IMG/VR virus record: IMGVR_UViG_3300038393_000909
Span: 34,229-98,228 of that record
From: a virus
Length of the DNA stretch: 64,000 bases
Strand: one strand, 5' to 3'
In this document: positions 1,710 through 47,207 of the stretch, in pieces
Numbering within the stretch: the stretch's first letter is position 1
Layout: each line of letters begins with the position of its first letter
Notes under the pieces: generated by a model
Database searches by the model: none
The model's input: only the letters and a program-made list of their open reading frames with translations
What the model was told of the DNA's origin: nothing
Translations under genes and position numbers: made by a program

Positions 1710-2590
1710 CGACGATCACGGCCAAGGTTATCGAGCACTCGGTCTCACGCCACGGTATCGAACTAGCGACTCTGCAGCTCCGCTTCCCACGATTCGTGCT
1801 GGCAGAGTTCAACACGCACCGGGTTTTCTCGCGCAATGCTCGGTCGAGTCGAGCAGTGCCGGTCGAGCGTATGATTCAGGAGATCGAGACCGACCCGGTG
1901 ATCCCGCTCCACTGGGGTGCGAACCAGAAGGGCATGCAGGCCAGCCAGGAGTGTGATGCCGAGGTCGAGGCCTGGAACTACCTGGGTTGCCCATCCGGTC
2001 CGTTCTTGGAGGAAGTTACGAACCGTGAGGCTTGGCTTCTCGCTCGTGACTGGGCCGTCGACTCAGCAAAGGCATTTGCAAAAGCTGGCTACCACAAGCA
2101 GGTCGTGAACCGGCTGCTCGAGCCGTTCATGCACATTGACGTCCTGGTGTCGTCTACGAACTGGTCGAATTTCCTCGCACTGCGCGATCACCCGGACGCC
2201 GAGCCGCACATCGCCATCCTTGCCCGTGAGATCAGGGCGGCACTCGATGGCTCGACGCCCTGGCTGCTGCAGCCCGGCGACTGGCACCTCCCCTACATCT
2301 CGACCGAGGAGCGCAACGCTCACGACCTCGACACCCAGCGTAAGCTCTCTGTCGCTCGGTGCGCACGGATTTCCTACACGCCGTTCGATGGAAACGGATC
2401 GATCGATGCCGAGCTGGCCCGGTACGAGTCCCTAGTCGGGTCTGCGCCGATACACGCGTCTCCTTGCGAGCATCAAGCAACGCCGGACTACCGTATTCCC
2501 TATGCACCGCACTGGAAGCATGCAGACCAGCACCGCAACTTTAGGGGCTGGCGACAATTTCGTGCCATGATTCCGTGCGATACTCTCTGA
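1706..2590 (+). CDS. thyX: FAD-dependent thymidylate synthase, phage type
   Basis: EFNTHRVFSRNARSSRA, HKQVVNRLLEPF, ARCARISY, HASPCEHQA. Confidence 0.9.
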   Translation: MTTITAKVIEHSVSRHGIELATLQLRFPRFVLAEFNTHRVFSRNARSSRAVPVERMIQEIETDPVIPLHWGANQKGMQASQECDAEVEAWNYLGCPSGPFLEEVTNREAWLLARDWAVDSAKAFAKAGYHKQVVNRLLEPFMHIDVLVSSTNWSNFLALRDHPDAEPHIAILAREIRAALDGSTPWLLQPGDWHLPYISTEERNAHDLDTQRKLSVARCARISYTPFDGNGSIDAELARYESLVGSAPIHASPCEHQATPDYRIPYAPHWKHADQHRNFRGWRQFRAMIPCDTL

Positions 2591-2610
2591 TGTACTGATC
2601 CGAGTTCTCA

Positions 2611-2895
2611 ATGATCACCCTGACCAAGACCCAGCGCGAGAACGCTGACCAACTCAGAACCATCCTCGATCAGGTGATCAAGGGAAACCAAGCCACCACC
2701 ATACCTGTCGAGGGTGGCATGGTCATGTACGATGTCGTGGTTGTGATGGATGCTCTGGCGCGTACCGTCGCGAACATCCTCGACATCTCATCCACCGAGG
2801 TGCGCCGCCAGCAACGGCTCAACTACTTTGAGAAGGTGCTCCTCGACACTCTGTATGCGAGCGACAAGAAGAATCGACCAACTGATTCTACCTAG
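2611..2895 (+). CDS. hypothetical protein
   Basis: ORF fills the gap with typical codon usage. Confidence 0.6.
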   Translation: MITLTKTQRENADQLRTILDQVIKGNQATTIPVEGGMVMYDVVVVMDALARTVANILDISSTEVRRQQRLNYFEKVLLDTLYASDKKNRPTDST

Positions 2896-39585: not shown

Positions 39586-40563
39586 TTACGCGAGCTTATG
39601 CTTAAAGGTAACTAGTTTAATGTTTTTCGGCTGATAGACGCGCTGCCAGTTGCCGGCGGTGGCCAACTCGGCGTTCGAGGCGGTCTCGAGGGCCGGCGAA
39701 CCGATCCACTTGATGCCGCGCGGGTGCAGGAGGAACATGCGACGCTGCACGATGTACTCGAAGCCGCCGCCGGACAGCGGGTCGCGCCACGCCTCGATCG
39801 GGTTCTTCGGGGCCTTCTCGGCGTAGCCGATGGCACCCGGAGCGAACAGGTACGTGGTGAAGTTGGTGCCGTCGTTGGGCATACGGTCGTCGACGATGAC
39901 GCGCTTGCCCATGTAGGTCGGGATCGGACGGCCCTGCTCGGACACCGCCACGAACGTGATCAGGTCCTGCTTCTGCATCAGCGCGTAGGTCTTGCTGTGC
40001 ACGACGACAGCGGCCAGATCCGACTCGTGGTCGCCCAGGCGGAACTTCGCGTCGATGAAGCTTTCACCATCGAACACCGCGGCAGCGCCGGTCGCGCCCG
40101 TGATGTCGAGGGTGTTGACGGGGGTGCCCTCAGCGGCGAGAGCGCCGGTCGCGCCAGCCACGACGGCGAGCAGCACGTCCTGGAGGTCGCGGTTCCAGAA
40201 CTCGGCGAAGCGGCTCACGATGACGGTCATCGGGTCCGAGCCGGCGAGGTCGGCCGCGAGGTCCGAACCACCGTAGACCTTGGCGCGGATCAGCTTGGCC
40301 GCGACGTCCTGCGACGTGGTGACCTTGTTGACCGACAGGTTGACGGAGTCGGAGACGATCTCCGAGCTGCCGTAGAGGTCCGACCAGAACGGCATGTGGA
40401 CGGAGGCGCCGTTGAGGGCGTCGCCCAGCATGGCGCTCATGTCGGCCACGATGCCCGACTGCCAGAAGTTGTTGAGGGCGGTCGAGTTCTCGACGATGTA
40501 CTGATGCCAGAAATCGGGCTGAATGATATCAGCCGCGCGAACGGGGGTTACAGTCTGGGCCAT
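39586..40563 (-). CDS. major capsid protein
   Basis: DII.P.F, F.QSGI, MPFW.DL, DLA..LAGSDPM, HP.G..W. Confidence 0.88.
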   Translation of the reverse strand: MAQTVTPVRAADIIQPDFWHQYIVENSTALNNFWQSGIVADMSAMLGDALNGASVHMPFWSDLYGSSEIVSDSVNLSVNKVTTSQDVAAKLIRAKVYGGSDLAADLAGSDPMTVIVSRFAEFWNRDLQDVLLAVVAGATGALAAEGTPVNTLDITGATGAAAVFDGESFIDAKFRLGDHESDLAAVVVHSKTYALMQKQDLITFVAVSEQGRPIPTYMGKRVIVDDRMPNDGTNFTTYLFAPGAIGYAEKAPKNPIEAWRDPLSGGGFEYIVQRRMFLLHPRGIKWIGSPALETASNAELATAGNWQRVYQPKNIKLVTFKHKLA

Positions 40564-40597: not shown

Positions 40598-40617
40598 GAT
40601 TCGAATTAATTCGAACT
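40598..40617. promoter_or_regulatory. 20-bp palindromic site
   Basis: GATTCGAATTAATTCGAACT before capsid gene. Confidence 0.75.
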
Positions 40618-41496
40618 TCAGAGCGCAGCGGCGGCGGCCCGCAGGCGCGCAGCCTTGGCTGGGTCATTGCGGAGCAGGAGGCTCTGCTGGGTGAGGTTCC
40701 AGGTGGGACCTTTGGCGAACGGGTTAGGTTCGGCCTTGCCGGCACCACCAGGAGCATTCGGCTGGGATCCCATGCCGATGCCGGGCTTGCTGTCGGCCTG
40801 GAAGAACGAAGGCCGGGTCTCGCGCATCTCGGTGAGCAGGTCCTCCACCGTCATCGGGACGCCGTTGAGGACGTCCTTGAAACGCTGCTGACCATTCGCA
40901 TCGACGACCTGGACGACCAGACGTCCGTCGACTTCCTTGGTCTTAATGGACTGCCGGGCCAGTAGCTCGACTGCATCCCGCAGATCGGCGACCGGGTTGA
41001 GCTTGGCGAGGTGCGTGGAGATCGCGTTGTCGACGAGGAGAGACTGGATCTGCTGCGTCTTCGCTTGGAGAGCCGCTTCCGCAGCGGTCAGCTTGGTGGT
41101 GGCGTCCGTGCGGATCGCCTCCATGTCGGCTTCGTACTTCTCCTTGAGCGTCTTGCTCTTGGCCTTGTACTTCTCGTCGGCGAGCTTCTCGGCCTCCTTC
41201 TCGGGGTCGAGCGTGGTGATCGTCTCCAGGCGACGCAGGGCGTCACGGGCGGCGTTCGGATCGAGACCCTCGTAGGCGGAGAACCGCGTCTCGTATTCCT
41301 TGGCCTTCTGTTCTAGCTCGGCCTTGAGGTTGCGCTCGGTGACGAGAGCAGTCTTCAGTCCGGCGACGTTCTCGAGAGCGAAGCCCTCAGAGGCCGCGAC
41401 GTCGAGGACATACTTGCCGTTCTGTTCGACGTAGAACGAGCGAAGACCTTCGTCGACCGCGTTGATGTCGGCGACGACAGCATTAAGTTTCGGCAT
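40618..41496 (-). CDS. capsid scaffolding protein
   Basis: Y.E..GKYVLDV, GLK.AL..ER, coiled coil, NPF...WNLTQQ..L...DP..A. Confidence 0.8.
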   Translation of the reverse strand: MPKLNAVVADINAVDEGLRSFYVEQNGKYVLDVAASEGFALENVAGLKTALVTERNLKAELEQKAKEYETRFSAYEGLDPNAARDALRRLETITTLDPEKEAEKLADEKYKAKSKTLKEKYEADMEAIRTDATTKLTAAEAALQAKTQQIQSLLVDNAISTHLAKLNPVADLRDAVELLARQSIKTKEVDGRLVVQVVDANGQQRFKDVLNGVPMTVEDLLTEMRETRPSFFQADSKPGIGMGSQPNAPGGAGKAEPNPFAKGPTWNLTQQSLLLRNDPAKAARLRAAAAAL

Positions 41497-41643
41497 TGGA
41501 GTTCAAACCATCCCGGTTTGGTATTGGGCATCCCGCCCAGTTGGATGACGACCTTGGGCATCCCGCTCAGAGGTCGGTGCTGGCTCATGCCAGCGGTTGC
41601 GCGTGGCTCTCAGGCGCACGCAGCAAGGGTTGACGCGAACGAT

Positions 41644-41663
41644 GGTTCGCTTTAATTCGAATG
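41644..41663. promoter_or_regulatory. 20-bp palindromic site
   Basis: GGTTCGCTTTAATTCGAATG; TTGACG at 41630. Confidence 0.65.
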
Positions 41664-41866
41664 GGTAGCCCGTCGGGTCCCACGGCTCAGCGCGCTGAGT
41701 CGCTCTTACCCGGAAGGATAGAGGCGGCGGGCTGCATTAGGTCCGACGGCGGCACGGGTGTGGCGTGCTCTTGGATATCCCCGTGCGTCTTACCCTTTCA
41801 GTGCGCAGCTGGGGCCGTCGGTATTCGCGCTCGAGCGGGAAGGAGGCACACCCGCGAGCGCGAACA
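41664..41866 (+). ncRNA. candidate structured antisense small RNA
   Basis: Three stem-closed domains with G-U pairs favouring + strand; TTGACG-N17-TAATTC upstream. Confidence 0.45.
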
Positions 41867-41867
41867 G

Positions 41868-42107
41868 TTAGAGGATCGGCTTACCGTCCTCGTCAAACGT
41901 GAAGAACCCGAGCGGCTCAGGAGCGGCCCGGTAGGAGATCATGTCACCGTCAGGATCTAGGATCCCGGTCTGGACCCAGCCAGGCTCTTCCTCATAGATC
42001 GTCAAGTCCGGGACGTGGACGGTGTTGCCGTCATCGTCGGAGATGTAGTTCAATCGTGTCGCATGCGAGGGCCGCGCAGGACCCTTTGCGTAAATCCTGC
42101 GGGGCAT
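41868..42107 (-). CDS. hypothetical protein
   Basis: TGILDPDG..I....PLGF pattern. Confidence 0.6.
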   Translation of the reverse strand: MPRRIYAKGPARPSHATRLNYISDDDGNTVHVPDLTIYEEEPGWVQTGILDPDGDMISYRAAPEPLGFFTFDEDGKPIL

Positions 42108-42132
42108 GGCGTAAGCCTGCTGTTATGACGTG

Positions 42133-42339
42133 CTAGAACTTATTGGCTGCGTCCAGCTCGACGAGACGAATCAGAGCGGTGCGGATCTTCTCGACCTCTG
42201 CGTCCCACTTCTTATCAAGCTTGAACATGTAGCCATCAGGTCGATCGATGCCCTGCTCCCTGAGAGCAACGACGATCGCTTCGACGAACTTACCAGCCAG
42301 TGGTTCGGCATGGCCCATCTCGGGCCCCATGCAGACCAT
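42133..42339 (-). CDS. hypothetical protein
   Basis: Packed ORF. Confidence 0.45.
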   Translation of the reverse strand: MVCMGPEMGHAEPLAGKFVEAIVVALREQGIDRPDGYMFKLDKKWDAEVEKIRTALIRLVELDAANKF

Positions 42340-43100: not shown

Positions 43101-43362
43101 TCGTAGCCTCGCACTTCGGTGTCTTGCGCTTGGTGGCAGCCCGCTTCTTCACCGGGAACTTCTCCCTGTGACAGACCGGGCAGCCCCACCACTCCTCGCC
43201 GACCAGCTCGCCGAACACGATCGCCGCGCGGGGCATCATGCGGACGAGCGCCTCGACGAAGCGACCGGTCTCCCGGTAGCACTCCTCGCAATGGTAGTCG
43301 GTGACGGCGAGTTTAAGCTGAACCATGGCTGGCCAATGTGGCGCAGCTCCGGTCCGTGTCAA
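43072..43362 (-). CDS. small zinc-finger protein
   Basis: CEEC...CPVC; overlaps portal stop. Confidence 0.5.
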   Translation of the reverse strand: MTRTGAAPHWPAMVQLKLAVTDYHCEECYRETGRFVEALVRMMPRAAIVFGELVGEEWWGCPVCHREKFPVKKRAATKRKTPKCEATNGRGSAVSL

Positions 43363-45014
43363 GCCTGATTGGCCGGACGGTCCCCACCGATATCGCGTGA
43401 CGCCTTGGAGAACGGCACGACTTCGGTCGGATCCTCGTTCGGCGGTTGCTCGACGAGCTTGCCGCTCGTGATCTTACCGGCCACGCGGGTCAGCTCGGCG
43501 TCGATGTCGAACTCGGCGTCCAGGAGATCGAGGCGCTTCAGTTCGCGCAGCGCGCCCTCACGGGACAGTACGCCGTAGGAGGCTGCCATCAGAACCGAGT
43601 TGACGTTCTTGGCCCGCTCGTCGGTGCCCGAGAAGTCGTAGTTCAGGTCGACCTTGACGTCCGAGTAGTCCCGGCCGACGTAGTCGCCCATGAAGACGAT
43701 CGCCTGCTTGAGCGCCGCCTGACAGCTGATCGCCAGATCGTGGATCACCGAGTTGACCCGGTTCTCCTGGAGCGAGTGCTCGTTCTGGGAGATGTACTGG
43801 CGGTGGGTGCCGACGGTCGGGTTCAGCGACAGCATGTCCATCTGCAGCTCGAGGGCCTCGATGTCCTTCTGGCCGGCTTCGATCGCCTTGCCCTGGGGCT
43901 CGACGTAGTACCAGCGGCCCTGCGGATCGGGCGAGGTCAGGATCTTCCAGGGGCCGATCTCGAACCCTTGCCCGTCGGGACCATCGTCGTCGAGGTTGAT
44001 CCCTGAGGCGGCCAGCATCGCGAAGCGACCGGCCGAGAGGATGTTGCGCTGGTCCGAGCTGGACTGCCAGTGCTCGATCTGCTTGTAGGCCAGATCCTCG
44101 AAGATCGGCCGGGCCAGACCGGGGCACTCCTCATCACCCGCCACCATGGTGACAAGCGGGACCTGCCTGAGATCGACACGGGTCTCGGAGACCAGGGTCC
44201 AGGCGCCGCCGGCTGACGGGACCTGGAGGTATTTCAACTGGAAGGGCCGGGTCGTGTAGATCGAGCCGCCGTTGCCGAGCGTCGCCGCGTTGATCGAGGA
44301 ACCAGCCACGGTGAGGCGCTGGCGTTCCCATACCTGCACGACCTCACGCTCGATGACGTAGACGCGGTCGTAAGTGATCTCGCGGAACGTGGCCGGGTCG
44401 TAGGCCGAGCGGGTCGTGGCGATGCGGGCGTGGACCACCCTGGTCTCGCCGTCGATCTGCTCCTCGTAGAAGGCCAGGAGGTCGTCGGTCTTCACGAGCC
44501 GCATGAATGGGCGAACACCCATGGCGCGCTGCATGCCGAGCGAGGCGACCGTGTCGGTCATCGTCGAGTCGACGAGGATGTGACCCATCGAGGTCAGCAC
44601 GGCCTCGTTGAAGAACTTGTGGCCGACGATGTGGATGTGGTGCTTGCGCATGTCCGCATCCCACATCCAGTCCTGCAGCTGGTCGTCGCCGCCCTCGACC
44701 GTGACGAGGTTGCGGAACGGCTTGGCCGAGGCGCTGTCGACGGCGCTACGGAGCTTGTTCAGGCAGAAGGTGGAGCGCAGGCGCTCGACGTAGCGCGTGT
44801 CGGTCTCACGCGGGTACTGCGGCAGGAACAGGCGGTCCATCTGCCGCATGGTCTCGGTGCCGCCGTAGCAGGCGCGCATCAGCTCGATGCGGGGCAGCAT
44901 GAGGCCGGACGCCTCGGAGCGCAGCATCGGGTTGGCGGAGACGCTGGTCGCGACGTCCTTGGTATCGGCCGGCGTAGGGGTGAGCCCCTGTGTCAGGTGT
45001 TCGGCAGCAGCCAT
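43359..45014 (-). CDS. portal protein (DUF4055 type)
   Basis: GGTETMR....LP....E...Y..RL, L....I.HWQSSSD; downstream of TerL. Confidence 0.85.
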   Translation of the reverse strand: MAAAEHLTQGLTPTPADTKDVATSVSANPMLRSEASGLMLPRIELMRACYGGTETMRQMDRLFLPQYPRETDTRYVERLRSTFCLNKLRSAVDSASAKPFRNLVTVEGGDDQLQDWMWDADMRKHHIHIVGHKFFNEAVLTSMGHILVDSTMTDTVASLGMQRAMGVRPFMRLVKTDDLLAFYEEQIDGETRVVHARIATTRSAYDPATFREITYDRVYVIEREVVQVWERQRLTVAGSSINAATLGNGGSIYTTRPFQLKYLQVPSAGGAWTLVSETRVDLRQVPLVTMVAGDEECPGLARPIFEDLAYKQIEHWQSSSDQRNILSAGRFAMLAASGINLDDDGPDGQGFEIGPWKILTSPDPQGRWYYVEPQGKAIEAGQKDIEALELQMDMLSLNPTVGTHRQYISQNEHSLQENRVNSVIHDLAISCQAALKQAIVFMGDYVGRDYSDVKVDLNYDFSGTDERAKNVNSVLMAASYGVLSREGALRELKRLDLLDAEFDIDAELTRVAGKITSGKLVEQPPNEDPTEVVPFSKASRDIGGDRPANQA

Positions 45015-45788: not shown

Positions 45789-47207
45789 TTACCAGTCTAT
45801 GACGTGCGCCTTCTTGGAGCCGAGCAGCGCTGCGAAGGCGTCGCTGAGTGCGTCCACCTGATCATCGTGCTGCCCGAGAGGGAACGTCGCCAGCTCGGCG
45901 AGCAGGTCCTCGACCCAGCGCTCGGACGATGAGCCGACGATCTTGACGTTGCGGGCTTCGCACTGAGCGGCGAAGGCAGAGGCGCGAACCTCCTTCGAAC
46001 CGGTCGGGCGAACCGCCTTGATGTTGTAACCAGCCAGTGATCGGATGAACGCTTCGGACTGCGCCACACCGGCCTGACCGGGATCCTTCGGGATCGTGAT
46101 CCGGGTATTGCGCCCGTCAGACTCGGCAGTCTCCGTCACCAGGGACTGGACCTGCAGCGGCGTCAGCTTACCCCGCTCGATGGCCTCGATGTAGAAGACG
46201 CCGTCTTTGTCCTTCGACATCAGGGCGCCGACAGTCGGGTCGCCTTTGAGCGTGGATCCGAAGTCCCAGGCGCGAACCTTGGTGCGCTTGGCCGGGACCA
46301 TGGACGGCTCGATGAAGTTGTTCTCGAACCACGCCGGCTTGAACATGCCGCCCGACAGGTTCATGGGGCGCTGCTGGTAGAGCGCGCTCCAGGTTCGGTC
46401 GGGGACGTTGGCGCGGATGCGCTCGAGTTCCTTCAGGGTACGGCGTCCTGGAGCCAGTGGCTCACCGATCTCGCGCCCTAATGGGTCGTCCTTGTCCTCG
46501 CAGATCGCGGGGAGCTTCAGGACCTTCCACTGGTCACCGCCCTTCTCCTGGGCGCGCAGCAGGCGCCCTCCGAGATCGTCGTGGTGCCAGCGGGTCTGGA
46601 TGAGGATGACCCGCCCTCCCCGCTCGAGGCGGGTGTAGATGACGTCCATGTACCAGTCCCACACCAGCTGGCGCCGGGACGGTGAATCGGCTTCCTCACG
46701 GTCCTTGAACGGATCGTCGATGAGGATCAGGTGGCCGCCCTTGCCGGTGGCGCCCGAGCCGACGCCGACCGCGAAATACTCCTGGCCGTTGTCGAGCATC
46801 CACCGATCGGCGGCGCGAGACTCAGGGCTCATCACCGCGTGCGGGAAGAGCTGGGCGTACTCGGTCGAGCGAATGATGTCGCGGGTGAATCGCGAGGACC
46901 GGGTGGCCTGCTCGGCGTTGTAGGACGCGCCGATGACGTTGGTCTCGGGGTTGCGAGCCATGAACCACGCCGGGAACGAGATCGACGACAGCTGCGTCTT
47001 CCCGTGCCGGGGCGGCGTGAAGATCATCAGCCGGTCGGTTTCGCCGGTCGAGACCTGCTCCAACTCTTTAGCGAGCAGGCAGTGAAATGGATCTGCAACG
47101 TAATTCGATTTTGTATACTGAGCAAAATGAACTAGGCTATCGCGAGCACGACGCCGTCGCAGGATCTCTGCTGCCGCCTCCTCGGGAGAGACAGAGAGTT
47201 CCCTCAT
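45789..47207 (-). CDS. terL: terminase large subunit
   Basis: PPRHGKT Walker A, LIDDP Walker B, QTRWH.DDL, WD, FP...HDDQVDA. Confidence 0.93.
   Translation of the reverse strand: MRELSVSPEEAAAEILRRRRARDSLVHFAQYTKSNYVADPFHCLLAKELEQVSTGETDRLMIFTPPRHGKTQLSSISFPAWFMARNPETNVIGASYNAEQATRSSRFTRDIIRSTEYAQLFPHAVMSPESRAADRWMLDNGQEYFAVGVGSGATGKGGHLILIDDPFKDREEADSPSRRQLVWDWYMDVIYTRLERGGRVILIQTRWHHDDLGGRLLRAQEKGGDQWKVLKLPAICEDKDDPLGREIGEPLAPGRRTLKELERIRANVPDRTWSALYQQRPMNLSGGMFKPAWFENNFIEPSMVPAKRTKVRAWDFGSTLKGDPTVGALMSKDKDGVFYIEAIERGKLTPLQVQSLVTETAESDGRNTRITIPKDPGQAGVAQSEAFIRSLAGYNIKAVRPTGSKEVRASAFAAQCEARNVKIVGSSSERWVEDLLAELATFPLGQHDDQVDALSDAFAALLGSKKAHVIDW

Follow-up and report, generated by a model that had tools for sequence, protein, structure and literature searches.

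Gene context and relatives of the gap upstream of the scaffold gene

The window analysed here is a 64-kb stretch of a 98-kb IMG/VR virus record, the source of which is soil. It contains a minus-strand phage head operon, inside which an intergenic gap of 371 nt (41497-41867) separates an ORF of 79 aa from the scaffold gene. The original prediction had placed in this region a single RNA of about 200 nt, made from an operator-controlled promoter on the plus strand, against the head operon, and composed of two domains (Domain 1 and Domain 2) and a terminal hairpin. The genes and the parts of the gap, given in the order of the operon, are as follows.

45789-47207, minus strand: large terminase gene of the head operon
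43359-45014, minus strand: portal gene of the head operon
Between the portal gene and the gap, minus strand: small ORFs of the head operon, the last of which is the 79-aa ORF
41868-42107, minus strand: 79-aa ORF, the stop codon of which adjoins hairpin H1 (1 nt before H1)
41741-41866, minus strand: module A, which covers the terminal hairpin and Domain 2 of the original prediction
41665-41739, strand not assigned: cargo slot, occupied here by Domain 1, a 75-nt GC-rich stem-loop particular to this phage
41497-41664, minus strand: module C, which includes the promoter and palindrome of the original prediction
40618-41496, minus strand: scaffold protein gene (phrog_206, E 3e-40)
39586-40563, minus strand: major capsid protein gene of the head operon

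Relatives of the locus were gathered with an alignment of scaffold homologs, which yielded 78 viral and 9 genomic loci, the latter from Bradyrhizobium, a Methylobacteriaceae MAG, Shinella and others, whereas searches of viral contigs with a single scaffold or capsid protein returned no loci. As judged by nhmmer, the entire gap is kept, immediately ahead of the scaffold gene, in some 45 of the collected loci, from Bradyrhizobium, Methylobacteriaceae and soil prophage or viral sources. When viral contigs were scanned with a loosely defined DNA pattern, most matches were due to chance; those that passed a covariance-model filter added further divergent members. Homologs of the scaffold protein were found at 94%, 84% and 68% identity, and their contigs were seen through soil-metagenome contigs aligned to the window. 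The covariance model of module A (R1) has a single match in the window, at 41741-41866 on the minus strand (81 bits, E ~1e-17), and matches 2 of the 151 sampled host-family genomes, which is consistent with one copy per prophage. No match to the region was returned by blastn among 50,697 phage records, and no description of this scaffold-upstream RNA was found in the literature. The public runs listed for the stretch include no RNA run.

In the collected loci the conserved element always sits in the region upstream of the scaffold gene. The 79-aa ORF on its other side (41868-42107) has no family assigned in Pfam or PHROG, and it was ruled out as a conserved partner of the RNA by its lack of similarity to the ORF that precedes the element in relatives. 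Thus, as judged from the compared sequences, the conserved RNA is linked to the scaffold gene and not to the upstream gene. ARAGORN calls no tRNA genes in the 64-kb window or in the whole 98-kb record.

Fold, covariation and strand of module A

The comparative structure of module A consists of a hairpin followed by a three-way junction, with the following parts.

41822-41866, minus strand: hairpin H1, with a conserved stem CGCGCUC/GAGCGCG and a variable apex
41743-41821, minus strand: three-way junction (Domain 2 of the original prediction), made up of P2, P3, P4 and J3/4
41814-41821 paired with 41743-41750, minus strand: P2, closing stem of the comparative structure
41803-41813 paired with 41779-41789, minus strand: P3, which contains a purine-purine mismatch; its 13-nt loop ends in AAGAC
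41769-41778, minus strand: J3/4 of the comparative structure
41764-41768 paired with 41752-41756, minus strand: P4 of the comparative structure

RNAalifold applied to the sense strand of a 32-sequence MAFFT alignment returned H1 and the three-way junction at -42.2 kcal/mol, with a covariation term of -2.76. For the reverse complement of the alignment the corresponding values were -32.9 and -0.98, and the mirrored helices showed C.A mismatches. In the MAFFT alignment A2, 98.1% of cells were paired and 13 pairs were compensatory; none of 500 column shuffles reached any of the five measures, and pairing dropped to 28-40% when the registers were slid on the MAFFT alignment. Similarly, in the CM alignment A5 of 41 distinct sequences, 97.7% of cells were paired and 21 of the 32 pairs were compensatory (0/500 shuffles). 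This CM-fitted alignment is biased towards structure and was relied on only jointly with the MAFFT counts, and all the covariation counts rest on sequences related to one another. The 10 pairs of H1 (helices 1-2), of which 7 are compensatory in the CM alignment, were also recovered in the minus-strand minimum free energy (MFE) fold of the window sequence.

Two of the originally proposed helices, the terminal hairpin and the closing helix of Domain 2 (CCGACGGC/GCCGUCGG), form in the plus-strand MFE fold and correspond to the covariation-backed H1 and P2, respectively. The inner helix of Domain 2 (GCACGGG/CCCGUGC), which also forms in the plus-strand MFE fold, is not kept in relatives, which have P3 and P4 instead; in the comparative fold its bases are used as the 3' strands of these two helices. 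The collection of homologs did reveal a structured, conserved RNA with covariation, as had been foreseen, but one the structure of which points to the minus strand and to other boundaries. The stability of the 211-nt single-sequence fold was no better than that of shuffles, with z-scores of -1.14 on the plus strand and -1.88 on the minus strand.

Across relatives the length of module A varies between 107 and 130 nt, with every class modulo 3 represented, which excludes a conserved reading frame on both strands. Stop-codon counts through module A gave no information, since GC-rich frames of such short length tend to stay open by chance. The plus-strand ORF at 41661-41960, which had been taken as non-coding, indeed appears to be so: it has no Pfam or PHROG match, the spread of module A lengths over all classes modulo 3 does not fit a conserved frame, and its start region lies in a cassette that is absent from relatives.

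A search of the window against Rfam 15 at the gathering score gave no match, in agreement with the original remark that no known family was recognised. When the threshold was relaxed to E<=10 for 41300-42200, only the serC leader (14 bits vs. 35) and sR39 (10.6 bits vs. 50) appeared. Neither module A nor Domain 1 is called as a tRNA or tmRNA by ARAGORN or matches the tRNA model of Rfam, and these results rule out Domain 1 as a degenerate tRNA. As no described family fits, module A probably represents a new RNA family. Its invariant loop and junction bases (AAGAC, CAAGAG and GCAC loops) suggest a specific partner, for which a mere boundary element would have no need.

In the window all 32 consensus pairs of module A are Watson-Crick pairs, so the strand cannot be read from the window sequence alone. 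Among relatives, with module A read on the operon (minus) strand, G.U pairs occupy 84 cells in 17 pairs, as compared with 10 cells in 6 pairs for A.C. About two dozen of the 41 loci have operon-strand tRNA genes within the gap or next to it. Moreover, most relatives have a canonical intrinsic terminator (T1) on the operon strand, after the upstream ORF and 10-50 nt before H1, and most also have, some 50 nt ahead of the scaffold start, another hairpin followed by a U-run (T2), which in L108 and L228 is a textbook terminator. The window lacks the U-runs of both T1 and T2; that of T2 has been lost in at least three other lineages too, and module A is kept in all of them. The G.U/A.C asymmetry, the difference in RNAalifold energies, and the co-oriented tRNA genes and terminators of relatives all point to module A RNA being a sense transcript of the operon strand and not an antisense one, with its predicted ends as listed above. 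They speak against the proposed transcription opposite to the head operon. The claim that G-U pairs favour the plus strand holds for Domain 1 (3 G.U pairs), which is not conserved, but for the conserved part the bias runs the other way.

A consensus scan of 41300-42200 on both strands found no sigma-70-like promoter, and none was found between T1 and H1 in relatives. The candidate hexamers for the plus-strand promoter that was thought to lie under an operator are TTGACG-N17-TAATTC, in which the -10 box scores 2/6 and its last position is not T, or N15-TTTAAT, in which position 2 is not A. They do not match the consensus and are not conserved in relatives. The palindrome read as the operator (41635-41650) is scored by the promoter scan only as a weak terminator-like hairpin on the plus strand, and in the alignment it falls on one of the hairpins that the sense-strand leader forms in module C.

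Two further features of H1 were observed. In the window its apical loop (41840-41847, minus strand) contains CCUCCUU, an anti-Shine-Dalgarno-like stretch, and CCUCC occurs also in the H1 apex of L006, L204/L236, L228, L230, L002/L213 and some main-clade loci (L014, L025, L028). In L016 (2641-2690) and in other main-clade loci, H1 and the D-arm of the neighbouring tRNA-Asn have the same 3' half (GGUAGAGCGC). Thus, H1 resembles a D-arm that has been extended, and a tRNA may have been its origin.

The cargo slot and the hairpin array of module C

The closest relative, the scaffold of which is 94% identical, is represented by soil-metagenome contigs that are collinear with the window over 40600-41664 and 41740-42107. 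Between these two segments, at 41664->41740, the 75 nt of the window are replaced by 129 other nt (three runs), and further contigs diverge at 41735 and 41740 into yet other sequences. This replacement indicates that Domain 1 is a swappable cassette in a slot. The closing helix and the two inner hairpins described for Domain 1 are present in the plus-strand MFE fold of the window, but a single unit of about 200 nt with two domains and a tandem motif is not supported when one of the domains is swappable and missing even from the closest relative. The motif shared by both domains, UCUUACCC, does occur exactly twice in the 64 kb (41704 and 41788); however, about 0.4 repeated 8-mers are expected by chance in 237 nt (an estimate), and one of the copies lies in the non-conserved cassette. 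Homologs of Domain 1 were found neither in the collected loci nor in its own genome or the four host genomes, and its exact core had no match in viral or metagenome contigs, which leaves the idea of a repeated or mobile mini-element without support.

The content of the slot differs greatly between relatives. In more than 20 loci it holds a tRNA-Asn(GTT) gene on the operon strand, and in L017, L018, L020, L021 and L022 an insert of about 800 nt encoding a luciferase-like protein on the sense strand (in L018, a luciferase-like monooxygenase, PF00296, at 2019-2840, plus strand, which is the operon strand there). In L204/L236 the cargo is a Cro/C1-type HTH gene (PF01381) in antisense orientation (L204:2564-3067, minus strand), and module A lies directly 3' of a tRNA. 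The slot is empty in several loci. Arrays of 5-9 tRNAs were found immediately upstream of module A in L002/L080 (1535-2759), L023 (1372-2527) and L108 (4814-6464). In hosting unrelated inserts (tRNAs, the luciferase-like ORF, the HTH gene and small hairpin cassettes), the slot at 41665-41739 resembles the sites of morons and tRNA cargo that lie among the late genes of temperate phages, but it is framed by two conserved RNA modules and not merely by two protein genes.

Module C, on the scaffold side of the slot, is made up of the following parts.

41630-41664, minus strand: 5' part, with a conserved AUUCG box and the hairpin GCGAAC-CAUC-GUUCGC (41635-41650), which aligns with the first hairpin region of relatives
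41579-41594, minus strand: hairpin of the array
41550-41575, minus strand: hairpin with a GGGAU loop, the counterpart of terminator T2 of relatives, here without a U-run
41525-41539, minus strand: hairpin of the array with a GGGAU loop
41505-41519, minus strand: hairpin with a GGGAU loop, adjoining the scaffold start

With a user-specified structure, 94.3% of the cells of module C were paired and 21 pairs were compensatory (0/500 shuffles). The hairpins with GGGAY loops, of which there are three in the window and three to four in relatives, have covarying stems and a kept loop. This is best seen in the start-proximal hairpin, in which the loop is constant and the stem is UCC/GGA, CCC/GGG, CAC/GUG, CCA/UGG, AACC/GGUU or CAUCC/GGAUG. 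In the window, CGGGATG occurs three times within 57 nt, as compared with 20 times in 128 kb (both strands).

In the main clade, 8-9 nt of the P3 loop of module A are complementary to the GCGGGAUGC hairpins, which makes a direct long-range RNA-RNA pairing across the slot possible. Such pairing was rejected as a universal feature: the complementarity is present in the main clade, L006, L108 and L204, but is absent in the window, L032 and L230. The array is also reminiscent of CsrA/RsmA-controlled leaders, as it has three to four short hairpins with GGA in the loop, the last of them at or just before the ribosome-binding region of the scaffold gene. However, the loop consensus is GGGAY and not ANGGA. 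CsrA (PF02599) is found neither in the phage record nor in four host genomes with related prophages (controls were positive), which rules it out as the binder of these loops.

Proposed role of the leader and alternative explanations

Taken together, the element is a real structured RNA and probably a new one, on the strand opposite to that first proposed and with other boundaries. The late (head) operon would contain a leader of about 370 nt that is conserved, structured and non-coding and acts in cis on the processing and translation of the scaffold-capsid message; the stretch that was originally picked out would make up two thirds of it, on the upstream side. For this reading as a whole, which we base on sequence comparison, we estimate a probability of roughly 0.6, and a lower one for its mechanism. 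The leader would be transcribed on the operon's own strand, between the portal-side and the scaffold-capsid genes, and would act on the late transcript. Module A with its flanking hairpins would provide a stable boundary or processing element, at which embedded tRNAs would be excised, and this boundary would keep two messages apart, a low-copy one from the portal side and a high-copy one for scaffold and capsid. Translation of the scaffold gene would be controlled by the GGGAY hairpins, via a binder or RNA-RNA pairing. As T1 and T2 are present in most relatives, a simple read-through leader requires that these terminators be leaky or antiterminated; no promoter was found. Excision of tRNAs is inapplicable to the phage of the window, which has neither a tRNA nor the U-runs.

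If the cis-acting leader is real, it represents an RNA family that is supported by covariation, has no earlier description and is specific to a group of temperate phages with soil and rhizobial Alphaproteobacteria as hosts. It would sit where these phages have to change from making few copies (portal) to making many (scaffold, capsid), would provide a defined candidate RNA operator for post-transcriptional control of the scaffold, and would exemplify a cargo slot for tRNAs and morons that is framed by conserved RNA modules. Wyckoff and Casjens (1985; cited in PMC2115188) reportedly described that the scaffolding gene of phage P22 is autoregulated, with control after transcription. This is a functional precedent only: the hairpins before the scaffold start could be an operator of that kind, but no comparable RNA operator is known to be defined in P22. 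The roles originally suggested for the RNA, as a protein sponge, an antitoxin decoy or a packaging-related RNA, found no specific support.

Alternatively, module A could be released from the transcript as a stable, free-standing small RNA with a role in trans. It would be expressed together with tRNAs, its 3' end being set by RNase P at the adjacent tRNA of relatives or by T2. Such an RNA would suit the many relatives in which T1 and T2 flank module A, the position of module A, which is immediately 5' of tRNA-Asn in over 20 loci and directly 3' of a tRNA in L204/L236, and the high conservation of its unpaired bases. GOLLD and ROOL are structured non-coding RNAs of prophages found likewise near tRNA genes, often adjacent to and co-oriented with them (PMC5737381). 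However, module A is much shorter than GOLLD and ROOL (about 115 nt vs. about 580-800 nt), gives no Rfam match, and is always tied to the region upstream of the scaffold gene, also in loci without a tRNA. As the stretch between T1 and H1 yielded no promoter, and as the window has neither a tRNA nor a U-run terminator that could set the ends, we regard a trans-acting RNA as possible but unlikely.

It is rather more doubtful that module A and the GGGAY array together form an RNA control device that would gate both terminator read-through and scaffold-capsid translation, alone or with a phage or host protein, and would at the same time serve as a conserved landing pad that takes up tRNAs and morons while the control stays intact.

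The put RNAs of phage HK022 and the PR'-6S-tR' leader of λ are structured late leaders that are followed by a terminator. Module A resembles them in being a short structured RNA, with two or three stem-loops of conserved sequence, that heads late structural genes and precedes an intrinsic terminator in relatives. As a put-like, cis-acting processive antitermination RNA, it would carry the polymerase past T2 and the terminators beyond it, so that scaffold, capsid and tail genes are transcribed. In line with that, most lineages have a terminator-like hairpin between module A and the scaffold gene, and in L108 and L228 this hairpin is canonical; the variable cargo of 0-800 nt that separates it from T2 is of a kind that an RNA bound to the polymerase could tolerate. 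Nevertheless, module A cannot overcome T1, which lies upstream of it, and it is kept where the U-run of T2 has been lost, in the window and at least three lineages. No promoter was found, Rfam contains no match, and no sequence or structural similarity to the put or 6S leaders was established, so that we consider antitermination by module A improbable. The element thus belongs neither to the GOLLD/ROOL RNAs nor to the put/6S leaders or the CsrA leaders.

An antisense RNA that starts from TTGACG...TAATTC near 41664 on the plus strand, or at minimum Domain 1 as an antisense cargo RNA, is very improbable. Domain 1 alone does fold better on the plus strand (MFE -37.3, z -1.67, with the 3 G.U pairs) than on the minus strand (MFE -27.4, z -0.53), and the structure originally described for it forms only on the former. 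The border of the cassette at 41664/41665 coincides with the predicted start, and the slot holds an antisense HTH gene in L204/L236, which makes antisense cargo conceivable for Domain 1; nothing else supports it. On the other hand, 13 of 200 shuffles fold as well as Domain 1 or better, no homolog of it was found and the closest relative has other sequence in its place, and the promoter hexamers neither fit the consensus nor recur in relatives. Furthermore, the terminal hairpin is not followed by a U-run on the plus strand, and the conserved helices contain C.A mismatches on that strand in relatives.

In phage Mu a late promoter lies just upstream of the scaffold/protease gene. Conservation of the gap as DNA-level sites (for an activator or a late promoter, or as a signal for packaging or replication) would account for the promoter that is expected for the scaffold-capsid genes downstream of T1 and was not found, and for the 3-4 direct repeats of GCGGGAUGC with one inverted copy (the P3 loop) in the main clade, but it is scarcely credible given the confinement of the G.U bias to one strand, the compensatory changes in 21 pairs of module A and 21 of module C, and the hairpin apices that vary from 4 to about 30 nt while the stems are kept, which suits RNA and not fixed-spacing protein sites.

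The cis-acting leader bears also on how the scaffold gene is annotated. In relatives, the GGGA of the start-proximal loop lies 5 nt before a conserved start (MLKAVV...), and is therefore likely the Shine-Dalgarno sequence. In databases, scaffold N-termini of the type MPRISGMD... (P0005, P0007, P0008 and P0010) begin at the AUG within the second GGGAUG hairpin. In L081 and L023 this AUG is not in frame, and in the window its frame runs into a stop; MLKAVV/MPKLNAVV is therefore probably the true start, and the N-terminal extensions on many related scaffold proteins probably reach into the leader hairpins. In the window, the AUG of the start-proximal GGGAUG opens a mini-ORF of two codons (AUG GUU UGA; 41503-41511, minus strand), which ends 6 nt before the scaffold AUG. 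Its counterparts are a start-stop AUG-UGA in L006 and a four-codon uORF ending in UAAUG in L034; these mini-ORFs may point to translational coupling or re-initiation.
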